Of a stretch of DNA of 4,266 nt, positions 236-4,266 are shown piece after piece. Position numbers and translations under genes: made by a program. Source of the stretch: a virus (Duplodnaviria > Heunggongvirae > Uroviricota > Caudoviricetes). The stretch lies in the IMG/VR virus record IMGVR_UViG_2547132272_000018. One strand, given 5' to 3'. The notes under the pieces are model-generated. The model saw nothing but the letters and a program-made list of their open reading frames with translations, had not been told where the DNA came from and did no database searches. The first letter of the stretch is position 1. Every line of letters starts with the position of its first letter.

Positions 236-2646
236 GCCATGCTGATATGAACAACTGCAGCGGCTTTAACGAGGCCGCCGCAGCATTCTCATGGAACAGC
301 CCGAAAAAGGCTATTAACCCTTATCTGGACCCGGCGGAAGTTGCGCCGGTTTCTGCGCTTTCAAACCTGATCACTCTGTACGCTGTCGATAACGAGCAGG
401 AACAACTGCGTCGCGAGGCACTGAGTGATCAGGTCTGGGAGCGTTATTTCTTTAATGAATCCCGTGATCCTGTCCACCGCGAAATGGAGCAGGATAAGCT
501 CATTAGCCGGGCAAAGATGGCGCATGAGCAGCAGCGTTTTAATCCAGACATGGTCATTCTGGCTGACGTCAACGCCCAGCCTTCCCATATCAGCAAGCCG
601 CTGATGCAACGTATTGAATATTTAAGCAGCTTGGGCAGGCCAAAGGCTTATTCCCGCTATTTGCGTGAGACGATTAAGCCATGTCTGGAACGACTGGAGC
701 ATGTACGCGACAGCCAGCTATCTGCATCTTTTCGTTTTATGGCAAGCCATGAAGGGCTGGACGGTCTGCTGATCCTGCCTGAAATGAGTCAGGATCAGGT
801 GAAACGCCTGTCTACCCTTGTCGCTGCGCATATGAGCATGTGTCTTGATGCCGCTTGTGGTGATTTGTACGCCTCCGATGATGTTAAGCCAGAAGAAATC
901 CGCAAGACATGGGAAAAGGTGGCTGCAGAAACCCTGCGACTGGATGTCATACCGCCTGCGTTTGAGCAACTCCGCCGGAAAAGAAACCGCCGCAAACCTG
1001 TGCCTTATGAACTCATTCCGGGTTCGCTGGCGCGTATGCTGTGCGCCGACTGGTGGTATCGGAAATTATGGAAGATGCGTTGCGAATGGCGAGAAGAGCA
1101 GTTGCGTGCTGTCTGCCTGGTCAGCAAAAAAGCATCTCCCTATGTCAGCTATGAAGCCGTGATGCATAAACGTGAGCAGCGCCGTAAGTCGCTGGAGTTT
1201 TTCCGTTTTCATGAACTGGTGAACGAAGACGGCGACACGCTGGATATGGAAGATGTGGTAAACGCCAGCAGCAGCAACCCTGCGCATCGCCGCAATGAGA
1301 TGATGGCCTGTGTTAAAGGTCTGGAGCTTATCGCGGAAATGCGCGGTGACTGCGCCGTTTTCTATACCATCACCTGTCCGTCACGTTTCCATTCCACGCT
1401 AAATAACGGCAGGCCCAACCCGACCTGGACAAATGCGACGGTAAGACAAAGCAGCGATTATCTGGTCGGCATGTTTGCTGCATTTCGTAAGGCGATGCAC
1501 AAAGCCGGATTGCGCTGGTATGGCGTGCGGGTGGCTGAGCCGCATCATGACGGTACAGTTCACTGGCACCTGTTGTGTTTCATGCGCAAAAAAGACCGCC
1601 GCGCCATTACTGCATTGTTGCGTAAATTTGCCATCCGTGAAGACCGCGAGGAGCTGGGTAATAACACAGGTCCACGCTTTAAATCTGAGCTGATAAACCC
1701 GCGCAAAGGAACACCGACAAGCTACATCGCGAAATACATCAGTAAGAACATTGACGGGCGTGGTCTGGCTGGCGAGATCAGCAAGGAAACGGGTAAATCC
1801 CTGCGTGATAACGCTGAATACGTTAATGCCTGGGCGTCTCTGCATCGTGTTCAGCAATTCCGCTTCTTTGGCATTCCGGGGCGTCAGGCTTACCGTGAAC
1901 TGCGATTGCTGGCTGGTCAGGCGGCAAGGCAACAGGGCGACAAAAAAGCAGGTGCGCCGGTACTGGATAACCCGCGCCTTGATGCCATCCTGGCTGCTGC
2001 TGATGCTGGTTGTTTTGCCACCTACATCATGAAGCAGGGCGGCGTACTGGTTTCCCGCAAATATCACCTGATCAGAACCGCTTATGAAATCAACGAAGAG
2101 CCGACCGCCTATGGCGATCACGGCATTCGTATTTATGGCATCTGGTCACCCATTGCAGAGGGCAAGATCTGCACTCATGCCGTGAAGTGGAAAATGGTTC
2201 GTAAGGCCGTTGACGTTCAGGAGGCGGCAGCCGACCAGGGCGCTTGCGCCCCTTGGACTCGTGGCAATAACTGTCCCCTTGCTGAAAATTTGAACCAACA
2301 AGGGAAAGACAAATCAGCTGATGGGGATACCAGGACGGACATTACCCGCATGGATGACAAGGAGTTGCACGATTACCTGCACAGTATGAGCAAAAAAGAG
2401 CGCCGGGAACTGGCTGCAAGGTTACGCCTGGTGAAACCGAAACGGCGTAAAGACTACAAACAGCGAATTACAGACCATCAGCGACAGCAGCTCGTCTACG
2501 AACTGAAGTCCAGAGGATTTGATGGCAGCGAGAAAGAGGTCGATTTACTCCTTCGCGGCGGCAGTATTCCGTCAGGAGCAGGCCTGCGTATCTTCTATCG
2601 GAACCAGCGTTTGCAGGAAGATGATAAGTGGCGAAACCTGTATTAA
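232..2646 (+). CDS. A: P2/186-family replication initiation endonuclease gpA (rolling-circle HUH nickase)
   Basis: 804-codon ORF with GGAG (221..224) 7 nt upstream of the ATG. Contains the HUH metal-binding motif [13 protein letters not shown] (H444-W-H446, nt 1561..1569) and the twin-tyrosine motif [13 protein letters not shown] (Y498 and Y502, nt 1723..1737), both nearly identical to motifs I recall from P2 gpA. The N-terminal FSWNSP region also resembles P2 gpA. Confidence 0.93.
2248..2267 (+). other. Candidate origin of replication (gpA nick site) inside the gene A coding sequence
   Basis: GCCCCTTGGACTCGTGGCAA matches 15 of 20 positions of the P2 ori nick region as I recall it (GCGCCTCGGAGTCCTGTCAA). 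It encodes APWTRGNNC, which aligns with APRSPVNNC in P2 gpA. P2-family phages place ori inside gene A. The reference sequence is from memory and unverified. Confidence 0.3.
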
Positions 2647-2715
2647 TTACGCGGGTTAACAATTCGTGCTCTTAATAATACCAGGCATATCAGGCTGATG
2701 AACGTAAAAAAACGT

Positions 2716-2756
2716 TTTACATCAGTAAGATTATTATATACTGTGAATATAAACAG
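2716..2756 (+). promoter_or_regulatory. Putative sigma70 promoter of the SOS module, overlapping the LexA box
   Basis: TTTACA at 2716..2721; candidate -10 hexamers TATACT (2737..2742) or TATAAA (2748..2753, inside the LexA box). Spacing is not ideal for either pairing, so exact elements are uncertain. Confidence 0.4.
2741..2756. promoter_or_regulatory. LexA operator (SOS box)
   Basis: CTGTGAATATAAACAG is a perfect CTGT-N8-ACAG palindrome with an AT-rich spacer, 44 bp upstream of the ATG at 2800 and overlapping the candidate -10. This matches the LexA-repressed tum promoter arrangement of phage 186. Confidence 0.7.
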
Positions 2757-2799
2757 TGGTTATGTATACAGTGTTGCTTGTGGTGTCATAGGAGGAAAG

Positions 2800-2988
2800 A
2801 TGCAGGACTATTTTTTGGAGTCTTTGAAGCTCCAGCGCATTGATTTTTTTCTTAAGCTTGTAGCGGCTAGTGAGTGTAGTGATGAAGAGAAGGGGCTGGC
2901 TCTGCAGTGGGTTTCTGAATTGACTGATGAACTCATGGCAAAAATCAGAAGCCACGAATACAACCGCTCAATGGATGTCATCAGCTGA
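2800..2988 (+). CDS. Small SOS-module protein of 62 aa, possibly the N-terminal antirepressor portion of a Tum-like protein
   Basis: ATG 2800 is the first start downstream of the LexA box and is preceded by AGGAGG (2790..2795). It is the inner start of listed ORF 2698..2988. The TGA 2986..2988 lies 10 nt before the DinI-like start. No family recognised from sequence. Confidence 0.5.
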   Translation: MQDYFLESLKLQRIDFFLKLVAASECSDEEKGLALQWVSELTDELMAKIRSHEYNRSMDVIS

Positions 2989-2998
2989 GGTGACTTTT

Positions 2999-3232
2999 AT
3001 GCGCATTGAAATAATGATCGATAAAGAGCAGAAGATTAGCCAGTCTACCCTGGACGCCCTTGAATCCGAGCTTTACCGCAATCTGCGCCCCCTGTATCCA
3101 AAAACGGTAATTCGTATCCGCAAAGGTAGCTCTAACGGTGTGGAACTGACCGGACTGCAACTGGACGAAGAAAGAAAACAAGTGATGAAAATTTTGCAGA
3201 AGGTGTGGGAAGACGACAGCTGGCTGCATTGA
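2999..3232 (+). CDS. dinI: DinI-family SOS-inducible protein (Tum C-terminal-domain-like)
   Basis: 77 aa starting MRIEIMIDK and ending ILQKVWEDDSWLH, matching E. coli DinI (MRIEVTIAK ... ILQETWESADDWF) in the N-terminal block, the DALxxEL block and the C-terminal acidic-Trp block. SD GAGGTGA (2987..2993) lies 5 nt before the ATG. It is the inner start of listed ORF 2927..3232. Confidence 0.85.
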   Translation: MRIEIMIDKEQKISQSTLDALESELYRNLRPLYPKTVIRIRKGSSNGVELTGLQLDEERKQVMKILQKVWEDDSWLH

Positions 3233-3286
3233 TTTTGTCAATAGACGCTTGTTTTTACTAATCAAAAAGGGTTACATATGAGTGAG

Positions 3287-3319
3287 AGGCGATGTCAATC
3301 AGATATCGCCTTGTTTTTT
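3287..3319 (+). terminator. Rho-independent terminator ending the SOS module
   Basis: Stem 3287..3296 pairs with 3302..3311 (AGGCGATGTC / GACATCGCCT-type, one G-U pair), 5-nt loop, then TGTTTTTT at 3312..3319. Confidence 0.6.
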
Positions 3320-3345
3320 GTCAAGAAAAGAATAATAGGCTAAAA

Positions 3346-4023
3346 ATGAAAATTAATAATGTAGCGTTACCAATATCTCTTGCTGTAATCCTAACTGGTT
3401 GCGTGCCACATGCTTCTAACCGAAATATCACTGCTATTGAAGTGGTGAAGCCAGCTATTGGGCAAAGTGCTACCGCCTACATGGGCGATCCCATTATCAC
3501 ATCTGCTACTGGATTTAAAACGGACGTACTAGAACTTGGTGCGGCTAATGGTGCATTGTCTTCTATCGCTGCTGGTACATATTGCAGTGAGGGGAATGGA
3601 ATTTACCGCAATTATCATAACCCTCAAGCTGTTGCGTTAAAAAATCTCTATGGGCAAATCGGTAACTATGTTGATTATGTTAGTTACGATGCTGCAAAAA
3701 ATGAGATATCACCGCCAAATGGCACTTCTTATACTGCATCAGAAATTTCTATCAAACGTGTTCCTGATGGGCTGTGTCGAGTGAGTAATTCATTGGTTAA
3801 GACTATCGAATACAATGGAAATGCAGGCGGTGTAATGAAGTTCACCTATCGTGAATTTGCAAACGATATGGCTCGTGCAGCATTTACAACAGATTTTTCT
3901 GTAGATTCTAAGGGAAGTGATGTTATCGCTTACAAAGGTGCCAAGTTCAAAGTGAACAAGGCTGATAACTCGTCTATTTCTTATACAATTATTTCTGGCT
4001 TTGACAAGGCTGTCACGTTCTAG
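3346..4023 (+). CDS. Putative lipoprotein of unknown function, 225 aa precursor; prophage cargo
   Basis: Begins MKINNVALPISLAVILTGC: a basic n-region, hydrophobic core and LTGC lipobox, with Val rather than Asp at +2 (suggesting outer-membrane sorting). Weak SD AGG at 3337..3339. Visibly more AT-rich than gene A. Two further Cys residues, Tyr/Asn/Gly-rich, C-terminal Phe. The listed ORF starts at ATG 3292, but that start lies inside the upstream terminator stem and would bury the signal peptide. Confidence 0.7.
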   Translation: MKINNVALPISLAVILTGCVPHASNRNITAIEVVKPAIGQSATAYMGDPIITSATGFKTDVLELGAANGALSSIAAGTYCSEGNGIYRNYHNPQAVALKNLYGQIGNYVDYVSYDAAKNEISPPNGTSYTASEISIKRVPDGLCRVSNSLVKTIEYNGNAGGVMKFTYREFANDMARAAFTTDFSVDSKGSDVIAYKGAKFKVNKADNSSISYTIISGFDKAVTF

Positions 4024-4127
4024 GTTTCACGCTTACTGAGTATGTTACGATTTTGCACATTCTGCATAAACGCGCATGTCTATGCTGCATGAGATCGCAT
4101 GATCGTTTGAGGATCTTTTGTGTTAAG

Positions 4128-4151
4128 GCCCGCCAGTTCTGGCGGGCTTTT
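4128..4151 (+). terminator. Rho-independent terminator after the lipoprotein gene
   Basis: GCCCGCCAG (4128..4136) and CTGGCGGGC (4139..4147) form a GC-rich inverted repeat followed by TTTT at 4148..4151. Confidence 0.65.
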
Positions 4152-4196
4152 GCGTAGATCATGCAGGTGCATGAAAACCACTACATAAAGCGGGCA

Positions 4197-4215
4197 GGCG
4201 TGGCGGGGATACGAG
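4197..4215. other. Candidate cos site (19-nt cohesive-end sequence of a P2/186-family phage)
   Basis: GGCGTGGCGGGGATACGAG: the first 13 nt match the 186 cohesive end as I recall it (GGCGTGGCGGGGAAAGCAT) and resemble the P2 one (GGCGAGGCGGGGAAAGCAC). The position downstream of gene A and its accessory genes is where cos lies in P2-family genomes. Reference sequences are from memory. Confidence 0.5.
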
Positions 4216-4266
4216 CGCGCGTATTTGGTCGTTACTTAGGGAAGGTGCGAATAAGCAGGTCATTTC

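Follow-up and report, generated by a model that had tools for sequence, protein, structure and literature searches.

The lipoprotein gene at 3346-4023 has no recognisable promoter of its own downstream of the conserved hairpin that precedes it and, on balance, we think it probable that the gene is transcribed mainly by attenuated read-through from the SOS promoter of the operon upstream, perhaps supplemented by a weak promoter ahead of the hairpin. The window, that is, the whole stretch of 4,266 nucleotides analysed, is by its sequence a Fels-2-like prophage of the P2 family. Its genes are ordered gpA, a LexA-boxed promoter, a tumA-like antirepressor gene, dinI/tumB, the hairpin and the lipoprotein gene (Table 1); it is 98.5% identical to Fels-2 over 2640-4221, and 98.6% identical to the near-identical prophage DuoHS of E. 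coli HS, which is inducible by LexA and Tum (PMC12055606).

Table 1. Features of the window that bear on transcription of the lipoprotein gene
Feature	Position	Strand	Evidence
Promoter-like site TTTACA (2716-2721)-15-TATACT (2737-2742)	2716-2742	+	Best PWM match in 2650-2800, 9.2 bits
LexA (SOS) box CTGTGAATATAAACAG	2741-2756		Only CTGT-N8-ACAG in the window; 0.05 expected by chance
62-aa ORF, TumA-like putative antirepressor, STM2728 homologue	2800-2988	+	phrog_698, E = 6e-38
DinI-family gene (TumB, STM2727 homologue)	2999-3232 (stop TGA 3230-3232)	+	Pfam DinI, E = 4.6e-23
Inserted cargo cassette (leader with hairpin, and lipoprotein gene)	3233 to about 4072	+	Comparison with 813R9; composition
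Weak promoter-like element TTGTCA (3235-3240)-16-ACTAAT (3257-3262)	3235-3262	+	4.3 bits, below chance; overlaps dinI stop
Conserved non-coding blocks CTTGTTTT and TTACATAT	3248-3255 and 3272-3279	+	Flank the hypervariable patch 3257-3263
Terminator-type hairpin GAGGCGATGTC-AATCA-GATATCGCCTT	3286-3312	+	10-11 bp stem, loop AATCA; folding, covariation
T-tract GTTTTTTG	3313-3320	+	Directly 3' of the stem; T-run ends at 3319
Shine-Dalgarno-like ATAGG	3335-3339	+	Follows an A-rich run, 6 nt ahead of the ATG
Lipoprotein gene, 225 aa, lipobox LTGC, STM2726 homologue, phrog_1353	3346-4023	+	Homologue alignment, PHROG
Backbone terminator GCCCGCCA-GTTC-TGGCGGGC, then TTTT	4128-4151	+	dG -16.1, score +16

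The SOS operon and the inserted cassette

The LexA box overlaps the -10 hexamer of the best promoter-like match ahead of the antirepressor gene. In each of the six phage-context lineages of homologues (lineages are given as L005 and so on) such a box is found 580-605 nt ahead of the lipoprotein ATG, even in those with a decayed dinI (L011, L062) or none (L005). The Fels-2 record annotates the dinI homologue as similar to TumB of PSP3; the tum gene is split in both Fels-2 and PSP3, and its upstream half in PSP3 encodes an antirepressor (PMC3121763). Lineages L013-L015 keep the hairpin and an intact gene with no LexA box within 1.2 kb, so that transcription there must come from elsewhere, most plausibly from the promoter-like site upstream of the hairpin.

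Directly after the dinI/tumB stop codon, at the gpA-gpQ cargo hotspot, the backbone gives way to a cassette with a G+C content of about 0.36-0.48 (mostly about 0.40), as compared with about 0.53 in gpA. Phage 813R9 aligns with the window up to the dinI stop and resumes from about 4074, without the cassette. The 113-nt leader was found only together with the lipoprotein gene, in 50 E. coli genomes and 28 phage records, and the cassette is confined to a subset of the E. coli genomes matching the region (50 of 1336); a scan of genome contigs gave one locus only, and the diversity of homologues was drawn from lipoprotein-encoding contigs and a metagenome scan. To judge from these comparisons, the hairpin and the lipoprotein gene are one inserted unit. 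The terminator at 4128-4151, however, is part of the backbone and not the cassette's own, because the same sequence stands downstream of dinI in the cassette-free 813R9. The first-pass annotation had read the hairpin as the end of the SOS transcript. A conserved terminator-type element does stand there, but it is part of the cassette and cannot simply be equated with the end of the backbone operon. In the cassette-free relative, that operon ends at another and stronger terminator, homologous to 4128-4151.

The hairpin and its conserved flanks

The stem comprises 11 pairs, five of them G-C and two G.U, with a 5-nt loop, and is followed by a U-tract, TGTTTTTTG, in which seven of nine positions are U and a G interrupts at position 2. 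Alone, the hairpin folds with a dG of -14.8 kcal/mol; the 76-nt hairpin region has a z of -3.08 against shuffles, 2 of 200 of which fold equally well. Three terminator-like sites occur in 2600-4266 where 1.3 +/- 1.2 are expected, a count that is not significant by itself, and it is conservation rather than the number of sites that puts the hairpin above chance. Six diverged lineages retain the structure, with changes that are compensatory or produce wobble pairs: in an alignment of seven sequences from these lineages, 97.4% of the pair cells are paired (27-53% in slid controls) and three pairs carry compensatory changes, while G.U and U.G pairs in the relatives imply an RNA read from the + strand only. 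A T5-T6 run follows in all lineages, as TTTTTC in Fels-2. Moreover, the hairpin and T-run are 82-88% identical between lineages in which synonymous sites are saturated (pS 0.71-0.79), and because this identity persists despite saturation, both are under selection. The hairpin is thus, on the strength of its conservation, a genuine terminator-type element.

A d'Aubenton-Carafa-style score, which is rough because it uses modern energy parameters, gives +0.8 (borderline) for this hairpin, -5.3 for that of Fels-2 and -1 to -48 for the relatives, against +16 for the backbone terminator and +26 and +30 for two strong reference terminators. These values suggest that the terminator at 3286-3319 is of borderline to moderate strength and would be leaky. 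The lower stem covaries, and the loop and upper stem are invariant in sequence; this apical part is conserved beyond what a plain terminator needs, which hints at an additional role, one that would lie outside the read-through model. Upstream, in alignment A3, which spans lineages saturated at synonymous sites, the columns of the blocks CTTGTTTT and TTACATAT do not vary or hardly vary.

Searches for a known or alternative RNA fold gave negative results. Searched against Rfam (E <= 10), 2600-4266 gave noise only, the sole regional match being MALAT1 (E = 9.3). Covariance model R1, run against phage genomes, recovered the known sites only; neither a further copy nor a partner element turned up. 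RNAalifold predicted the terminator plus weak A-U helices only and no conserved antiterminator. A leader attenuator or riboswitch was rejected, as neither mutually exclusive folds nor a known aptamer were detected with RNAalifold and Rfam.

Start codon, translation signals and conservation of the lipoprotein

All 21 homologues (21 of 21) align from the Met at 3346 and show a signal peptide and the lipobox L-x-G-C (here MKINNVALPISLAVILTG, followed by the C); G18 and C19 are invariant among them. PHROG 1353 aligns from residue 1, and RefSeq uses the ATG at 3346, which is the real start. The extended form of 243 aa annotated in Fels-2 (ATG 3292) was rejected: it would start within the stem, 2 nt after GAGG, and is interrupted by stops in L005 and L062. 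The annotation of STM2726, with its start inside the hairpin, is corrected accordingly. A motif [AT]ATAGG precedes the ATG by 5-8 nt in most lineages with the hairpin and also in the hairpin-less L007 and L016; the corresponding sequence in L062 is TTGGG. A 21-codon ORF (3278-3343) that ends 2 nt before the ATG was considered as a leader peptide, or as a means of translational coupling, and dismissed; its own ATG is lost in L005, L011, L013 and L062, that is, in four of six lineages.

Among Klebsiella and Salmonella phages the protein sequences are 98.7-100% identical, the gene is 98.6-99.4% identical at the DNA level in E. coli, and dN/dS is about 0.05-0.07. The gene is also intact in remnants in which tumA, dinI and the integrase gene have decayed. 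An AlphaFold2 model is all-beta (pLDDT 81) and found no structural relatives; the 225-aa protein has no Pfam or NCBIfam family, and PADLOC matched it to no known defence family.

Promoter candidates near the lipoprotein gene

Promoters were scored with a consensus sigma-70 scan and a PWM, and compared with shuffles of the same 150 nt, for which the median best score is 7.3 bits. No sigma-70 site above chance was found in 3200-3345 by either method, the consensus PWM being blind to -35-less, activator-dependent and alternative-sigma promoters and the stretch being A+T-rich; an informal inspection by eye gave no conserved match to the sigma-E, sigma-32 or sigma-54 consensus. The hairpin, the ATG at 3346, the TTGTCA/ACTAAT pair and AATAAT are all present where the first-pass annotation placed them, with 26 nt between the end of the T-run (3319) and the ATG, and its judgement that the possible promoter elements are weak is borne out: the pair falls below the shuffle median (Table 1), as does AATAAT (3331-3336), which, paired with TCGCCT over a 19-nt spacer, reaches 4.0 bits. 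The best local match, TTGTCA(3318)-18-AAAAAT(3342), scores 8.3 bits; transcription from it would begin past the ATG, with no in-frame start codon (ATG, GTG or TTG) left before the lipobox. No candidate after the hairpin is common to several lineages. A sigma-70 promoter in this interval was consequently rejected, nothing usable being present and the 8.3-bit site starting past the ATG, and the gene is without a recognisable promoter of its own after the hairpin. On the minus strand, the loop provides a perfect TTGACA. The distance from this hexamer to TATGTA, however, changes from 14 nt in most lineages to 16 nt in two, and no consistent minus-strand promoter results.

Upstream of the hairpin, the position homologous to 3235-3262 holds the top-scoring site in L059 (TTGTCA-16-AATACT, 8.5 bits), L005 (TTGATG-17-TATGGT, 9.9 bits) and L013 (TTGAGG-19-TAAAAT, 9.4 bits), and for this reason the element may add basal transcription through the hairpin. 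Homologues of 57-62% amino acid identity, found in other contexts, have no hairpin. In four of the six distant homologues from the metagenomes, a promoter-like site of 9.5-13 bits stands 38-62 nt ahead of the ATG; three of these sites have an extended -10. In L007 (80% amino acid identity), which retains a decayed tum-dinI remnant, there is no LexA box, the T-run is lost and a 9.2-bit site is present.

Transcription of the lipoprotein gene and alternative explanations

In mutagen-treated Salmonella TA100, which carries Fels-2, STM2726, STM2727 and STM2728 are all up-regulated (p < 0.05); the maximum among the three, 14.8-fold, is that of STM2727, and the least significant gene, which the paper does not name, changes 2.6-fold (PMC2225428). 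The latter value is presumably that of STM2726. No other Fels-2 operon is among the 54 responding operons (PMC2225428), and in the literature on locus tags STM2726 is mentioned in the MX microarray paper only. The first-pass annotation had proposed that the lipoprotein gene may be damage-inducible through read-through. This induction, the borderline terminator score, the LexA box in six lineages and the clearer promoters of most hairpin-less homologues all point to it indirectly, and we infer partial termination and read-through as the source of the mRNA. RNA polymerase would start at the LexA-repressed tum promoter (about 2716-2756), cross tumA and dinI and pass the leaky, Rho-independent terminator at a reduced rate, yielding a lipoprotein mRNA translated from a normal Shine-Dalgarno site. 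The element at 3235-3262 may add a little constitutive transcription, which likewise would have to cross the hairpin. The expected outcome is a low expression in the lysogen and a damped SOS induction of the lipoprotein.

A promoter within the cassette, upstream of the hairpin, would make the lipoprotein mRNA largely SOS-independent, and the hairpin a 5'-UTR attenuator or a stabiliser of the mRNA. The candidates are TTGTCA-16-ACTAAT (start near 3269) and the conserved TTGTTT-17/18-TTACATA (start near 3285). We regard this as possible, if rather unlikely. The best sites of L059, L005 and L013 fall at the homologous position, L013-L015 lack the LexA box yet retain hairpin and gene, the 16 variable bases that separate the invariant blocks CTTGTTTT and TTACATAT are a spacing typical of promoters, and the T1 stem-loop of ColE7 has been reported to stabilise cel mRNA (PMC2896534). 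However, the -10 of the first candidate (ACTAAT or TCTAAT in the window, Fels-2 and Klebsiella) is without the critical A at position 2 and its 4.3 bits compare poorly with the shuffles, TTGTTT/TTACAT scores 1.9 bits, the homologous position in L062 holds no candidate, and an attenuator finds no conserved antiterminator in the RNAalifold prediction. Moreover, such a promoter alone leaves the induction by mutagens unexplained. A transcript starting after the hairpin, at about 3343 from the -10-like AATAAT, was the other source offered in the first-pass annotation, and we find it very improbable. The hexamer fits the -10 consensus at five of six positions and is placed after the terminator, but a usable -35 and an extended -10 are both lacking, and its sequence varies between lineages (AAAAAT/AATAGG in L011, AAAATT in L062, AACTAT in L013). 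The leader would measure 2-4 nt, which is not a 5'-terminal AUG, and would discard the AGG motif of the Shine-Dalgarno sequence, conserved across lineages including hairpin-less ones. That the gene is essentially silent cargo, insulated by the terminator, is hardly credible either: a terminator directly upstream, the lack of a promoter and a low G+C typical of H-NS-silenced acquired DNA would fit, but the strong purifying selection, the near-identity of protein and DNA among phages and in E. coli, the intact gene in decayed remnants and the induction in the array speak against it.

The dinI 3' UTR and hairpin (about 3265-3320) could instead constitute a small regulatory RNA, made from its own promoter or processed from the SOS transcript, that interacts through the conserved UUACAUAU block or the apical loop; the closeness to the lipoprotein start would then be secondary. 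A conserved single-stranded block, a hairpin and a U-tail are the usual layout of Hfq- or ProQ-type and 3'-UTR-derived small RNAs, and here they occur in that order, in non-coding sequence far more conserved than synonymous sites and with an invariant loop and upper stem above a covarying lower stem. Nevertheless, we hold this to be quite improbable, as the element matches no Rfam family, has no second copy or partner detectable by the covariance model in the phage genomes searched, and is never seen without the lipoprotein gene. The constant association with the gene argues for a role in cis. A related proposal, speculative and in our view doubtful, is that the leader (about 3248-3320), constrained beyond the synonymous sites of the gene, is a sequence-specific cis-regulatory element or 3'-UTR-derived small RNA that gates the lipoprotein until SOS or phage induction.

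Comparison with known systems

Attenuated read-through into a lipoprotein gene has a precedent in the colicin operons of the ColE7/ColE2 type (cea-cei-cel), in which the T1 terminator before the lysis lipoprotein gene lowers its transcription (PMC2896534). Both systems combine a LexA-controlled promoter, an intrinsic terminator in the last intercistronic region and a lipoprotein gene immediately after it. In contrast to the bacteriocin release proteins of roughly 50 aa, to which it has no similarity, the lipoprotein studied here is 225 aa long with an all-beta model; the Shine-Dalgarno sequence lies 15-20 nt after the T-run and not, as in the colicin operons, inside the stem-loop; the leader has no CsrA-type GGA motifs; and the element resides in a prophage rather than a Col plasmid, with a read-through that we infer. 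The size and the lack of a family match led us to reject membership in the bacteriocin-release (lysis) lipoproteins, the layout being alike. The arrangement of SOS promoter, leaky terminator and lipoprotein gene is therefore already known from the colicin operons, and the prophage would add a phage example.

The tum operon of coliphage 186, split in PSP3 and Fels-2, has a LexA-boxed promoter behind the replication gene and provides an antirepressor and a DinI-like function (PMC3121763). The window has the same LexA-boxed promoter, antirepressor gene and dinI homologue; the terminator-lipoprotein cassette, present in a subset only, is an extra to the operon as described in those sources. Leader attenuators, riboswitches and 3'-UTR small RNAs share with the element a terminator hairpin with conserved flanks, located between a possible start and a coding sequence, but the conserved antiterminator fold, Rfam match or conserved leader peptide of leader attenuators and riboswitches is lacking here. 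Classical morons carry their own promoter and terminator. Like them and other P2 hotspot cargo, the cassette brings an extra gene of deviant composition, present in some relatives and absent from others such as 813R9; unlike them, it has no recognisable promoter, its terminator is upstream and the downstream terminator is that of the backbone, and we rejected its classification as an autonomous moron. The gpA-gpQ interval is a known cargo hotspot of P2 phages, where old, tin and anti-phage systems reside (PMC9122126).

Implications for cargo genes of P2-family prophages

Cargo between gpA and gpQ is usually taken to consist of self-contained units that are expressed from native promoters in the lysogen, and candidates have been cloned and tested as such (PMC9122126). 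The mechanism proposed here is familiar, and the stakes in practice are modest. If, however, the lipoprotein gene is read solely at the damped end of the operon, a clone carrying it "with its native promoter" would be silent and yield a false negative. Should the leader gate the gene in a sequence-specific manner, this would represent a new regulatory logic for the P2 hotspot, and the lipoprotein could serve the induction phase (receptor masking, release or envelope remodelling) rather than defence of the lysogen. In any event, if the lipoprotein is the damped tail of the LexA-controlled tum operon, its function should be sought during SOS and prophage induction and not in the resting lysogen.

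Terminator and start of the lipoprotein gene

Over its 4266 bases the window shares 98-99% identity with Fels-2 of Salmonella LT2, with a group of Klebsiella P2-like prophages and with prophages of E. coli ATCC 8739 and HS. The stem-loop GAGGCGATGTC-AATCA-GATATCGCCTT is followed by GTTTTTTG, has a folding energy of -14.8 kcal/mol in isolation and, with its surroundings (76 nt), gives z = -3.08 against shuffles. The T-run ends at 3319, and 26 nt remain to the lipoprotein ATG. The fold, the z-score and a promoter scan thus confirm the first-pass annotation, which had placed a terminator at this distance from the ATG with almost no room for a promoter; no recognisable promoter is present, and the promoter-like hexamers that it listed are all found where it put them.

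Features of the window
Feature	Position	Remarks
Replication gene gpA	232-2646	
A+T-rich control region	after gpA	single LexA box
LexA box CTGTGAATATAAACAG	2741-2756	CTGT-N8-ACAG; 0.05 expected by chance
Promoter-like site TTTACA-15-TATACT		best in control region; LexA box overlaps its -10
62-codon ORF (tumA-like)	2800-2988	phrog_698
DinI-family gene	2999-3232	Pfam DinI, E = 4.6e-23
Terminator hairpin	3286-3312	between dinI and lipoprotein gene
Lipoprotein gene, 225 codons	3346-4023	phrog_1353
G+C-rich hairpin and T4 run	4128-4151	

The start at 3346 is correct: 21 homologues align from its Met through the signal peptide and an invariant G-C lipobox, and the PHROG profile (match from residue 1) and RefSeq (same start) agree. 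These same three sources favour the 225-aa form over the GenBank start of the Fels-2 homologue, STM2726 (243 aa; ATG at 3292, inside the stem; window 3292-4023, Fels-2 record 2152-2883), and the frame upstream of 3346 carries stop codons in two relatives, L005 and L062. The dinI stop codon lies 53-54 nt before the stem, and therefore ribosomes terminating there should leave the folding of the hairpin undisturbed. A 21-codon ORF, MSERRCQSDIALFFVKKRIIG (3278-3343), crosses the hairpin, with an AAGGG motif 6 nt on its 5' side and its stop 2 nt before the lipoprotein ATG; its translation would melt the terminator. Its ATG is limited to the types of the window, Fels-2 and L059; L005, L011, L013 and L062 lack it. 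Another, weak terminator-like hairpin, GTCATCAGCTGAGGTGAC followed by TTTTAT (2977-2994), lies across the tumA-like stop codon and the region where dinI starts.

Conservation of the leader

Diverged copies of the cassette (the inserted leader with its hairpin and the lipoprotein gene) were collected by protein search, contig look-ups and a metagenome scan. The hairpin is found in the window/Fels-2 type and in five more lineages.

Relatives carrying diverged copies of the cassette or of its lipoprotein gene
Relative	Amino acid identity to window	Context
L059/L060 and 11 E. coli genomes	97%	behind intact dinI
L011/L012	88%	short contigs; tumA intact, dinI a 26-codon stub
L062/L063	88%	dinI region diverged as in L011
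L005 (Buttiauxella)	82%	P2-like phage; dinI ORF not called
L013-L015	80%	non-phage context; integrase fragment, only a 3' remnant of dinI
L007	80%	decayed tum-dinI remnant; no terminator
L016	69%	lambda-like context; no terminator

Across the hairpin lineages 97.4% of the pair cells are paired, with double changes at 3 pairs, and in slid controls just 27-53%. The stem is kept by C-G to U-A changes (L059, L062), by a G-C to U-A change (L005) and by several G.U and U.G changes (L005, L013, L062); these wobbles are compatible with + strand RNA only. All Klebsiella copies (such as that of phage 4LV2017) have one extra nucleotide in the 5' arm (GATGATC, homologous to 3294), which turns a G.U pair into a bulged G and an A-U pair. 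Hairpin and T-run are 82-88% identical despite saturation of the gene's synonymous sites (pS 0.71-0.79, window versus L005, L013 and L007); dN/dS of the gene is about 0.05-0.07 where computable. Little or no variation is seen in the blocks CTTGTTTT (3248-3255) and TTACATAT (3272-3279) or in the apical ATGTCAAT.AG, and the 7-nt patch between the two blocks (3257-3263) is hypervariable (ACTAATC, AATACTT, TCTAATC, GCTAATT or TATGGTT). RNAalifold pairs CUUGUUUU with AAAAAGGG in a weak A-U/G-U helix, the variable patch lying in the loop. Sequence conservation of the apical stem and loop and of the two upstream blocks goes well beyond the needs of termination; this would be compatible with a protein-binding site, with a role in processing or stabilisation, or with a dinI 3' UTR-derived small RNA. 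In the phage genomes searched, no second copy or partner of the element was recovered with its covariance model. Most hairpin lineages, and also L007 and L016, keep a Shine-Dalgarno-like [AT]ATAGG 5-8 nt ahead of the ATG; L062 has TTGGG at this position.

In several relatives dinI survives only as decayed fragments or as a 3' end beside an integrase fragment (L011 1446-1700; L013 1700-1830; L007 2007-2400), and in L007 tumA has decayed as well. The lipoprotein gene is intact in all of them, which suggests that it is kept as a host-beneficial remnant after decay of the phage.

Source of transcription

The name SOS transcript is justified for 2716-3232, because the 186-type tum gene is split in Fels-2 and PSP3, with the antirepressor encoded by its upstream half in PSP3 (PMC3121763), and because the DuoHS prophage of E. 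coli HS, almost identical to the window, is LexA- and Tum-inducible (PMC12055606). All six phage-context lineages have a CTGT-N8-ACAG box 580-605 nt 5' of the lipoprotein ATG, with dinI intact, decayed or missing; none is found upstream of the gene in L013, L007 and L016. A rough d'Aubenton-Carafa-style index, set against two strong reference terminators, gives +0.8 for the window, -5.3 for Fels-2 (run TTTTTC), -1 to -48 for relatives, +16 for the backbone terminator at 4128-4151 and +26 and +30 for the references, and points to incomplete termination, with some of the polymerases reading through. In Salmonella TA100, which carries Fels-2, the predicted operon STM2726-STM2727-STM2728 is among 54 that respond to the mutagen MX, all three genes changing in the same direction (p < 0.05, none missing); the largest change, 14.8-fold, is that of the DinI homologue STM2727, and the least significant gene, unnamed, changes 2.6-fold (PMC2225428). 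We infer that the latter is STM2726, the gene behind the terminator. The response is not general prophage induction, since no other Fels-2 operon is on the list (PMC2225428).

Promoters were sought with a self-written sigma-70 PWM (consensus frequencies, spacer weights, TG bonus); 500 shuffles of the same 150 nt gave a median best score of 7.3 bits. The top local site, TTGTCA(3318)-18-AAAAAT(3342), scores 8.3 bits and is also found by a consensus scan; it was rejected as the lipoprotein promoter, initiation falling after the ATG, with no in-frame ATG, GTG or TTG before the lipobox. No promoter-like site 3' of the hairpin is common to the lineages compared, and no consistent minus-strand promoter was found. 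Homologues of 57-62% identity lack the hairpin. Of the six among them that came from the metagenome scan (L064-L070), four score 9.5-13 bits at a promoter-like site 38-62 nt ahead of the ATG, three with an extended -10, and the other two reach about 8 bits; L007, its T-run lost, has a 9.2-bit site 45 nt upstream.

The interpretation in the first-pass annotation holds in part. Of its two routes, read-through from the SOS operon is supported by the LexA boxes, the weak terminator index, the lack of a shared promoter and the promoter-like sites of homologues without the hairpin, and is most likely how the lipoprotein is expressed. A near-leaderless mRNA is improbable, because AATAAT differs between lineages and lacks both a -35 and a TG partner (4.0 bits with the best available -35), and because a start from it would leave a 2-4 nt leader and lose the conserved AGG motif. 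A constitutive second input from the promoter-like site upstream, also forced through the hairpin, is plausible in some lineages at least, because the position homologous to TTGTCA-16-ACTAAT is the top-scoring site in L059 (TTGTCA-16-AATACT, 8.5 bits), L005 (TTGATG-17-TATGGT, 9.9 bits) and L013 (TTGAGG-19-TAAAAT, 9.4 bits), the last without a LexA box. In the window, however, this site is weak (4.3 bits) because its -10 lacks the critical A in second position; Klebsiella copies have TCTAAT there.

Cassette boundary and distribution

In E. coli phage vB_EcoM-813R9, which shares gpA, tumA and dinI with the window, homology ends exactly at the dinI stop codon and restarts at about window position 4074, and the SOS operon continues into a homologue of the backbone terminator. 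Of 5426 complete E. coli genomes, exactly 50 contain the intergenic region 3233-3345 (113 nt), and so do 28 phage records. The same numbers are obtained for E. coli genomes in which 80% or more of the tum-to-lipoprotein query is covered and for phage records carrying the lipoprotein at a minimum of 98.7% identity; the tum-dinI part is matched in 1336 E. coli genomes. The hairpin, read at first as the end of the SOS transcript, is thus part of the lipoprotein cassette, not of the phage backbone. The cassette is A+T-rich (G+C mostly about 0.40, versus about 0.53 in gpA) and sits in the gpA-gpQ interval, a documented hotspot for variable anti-phage cargo in P2-like phages (PMC9122126). Genes after the lipoprotein, or after dinI without the cassette, vary among relatives (L005 3662-4402; L014 1353-3017; 813R9 2403-3554) and include TIR/SEFIR, AIPR and Hypoth_Ymh proteins, as expected for this defence hotspot. 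A ~160-nt block containing the strong GC hairpin (4074-4230; 813R9 about 2190-2330) is common to the window phage and 813R9, with different flanking cargo, and perhaps serves the hotspot as a backbone junction or a terminator module; an Rfam match to the rnk leader in it was weak and not significant (E = 1.3).

Relation to known systems

The closest functional parallel is the ColE7/ColE2-type colicin operon, where cea and cei are transcribed from an SOS promoter and the cei-cel spacer holds a terminator, T1. Transcription of the gene for the lysis lipoprotein is reduced by T1, which reportedly also stabilises the mRNA of that gene (PMC2896534). Both have an SOS promoter, an intercistronic terminator and a promoter-less lipoprotein gene. 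The window cassette is nevertheless not a member of that family, because its lipoprotein (225 aa) has no family assignment or structural relatives, its Shine-Dalgarno site lies outside the stem-loop and its leader lacks GGA motifs. In contrast to a classical moron, it lacks two defining features, a promoter and a terminator of its own; no conserved antiterminator fold or Rfam match marks the leader as a recognised attenuator. The mechanism remains inferential. The cassette adds a new case to a regulatory layout that is already known: it would set behind dinI an intrinsic terminator of moderate efficiency, followed by a lipoprotein gene with its own ribosome-binding site but no promoter, the gene would be an attenuated distal member of the LexA-controlled tum operon, and the outcome would be very low expression in the lysogen and a damped induction by DNA damage.
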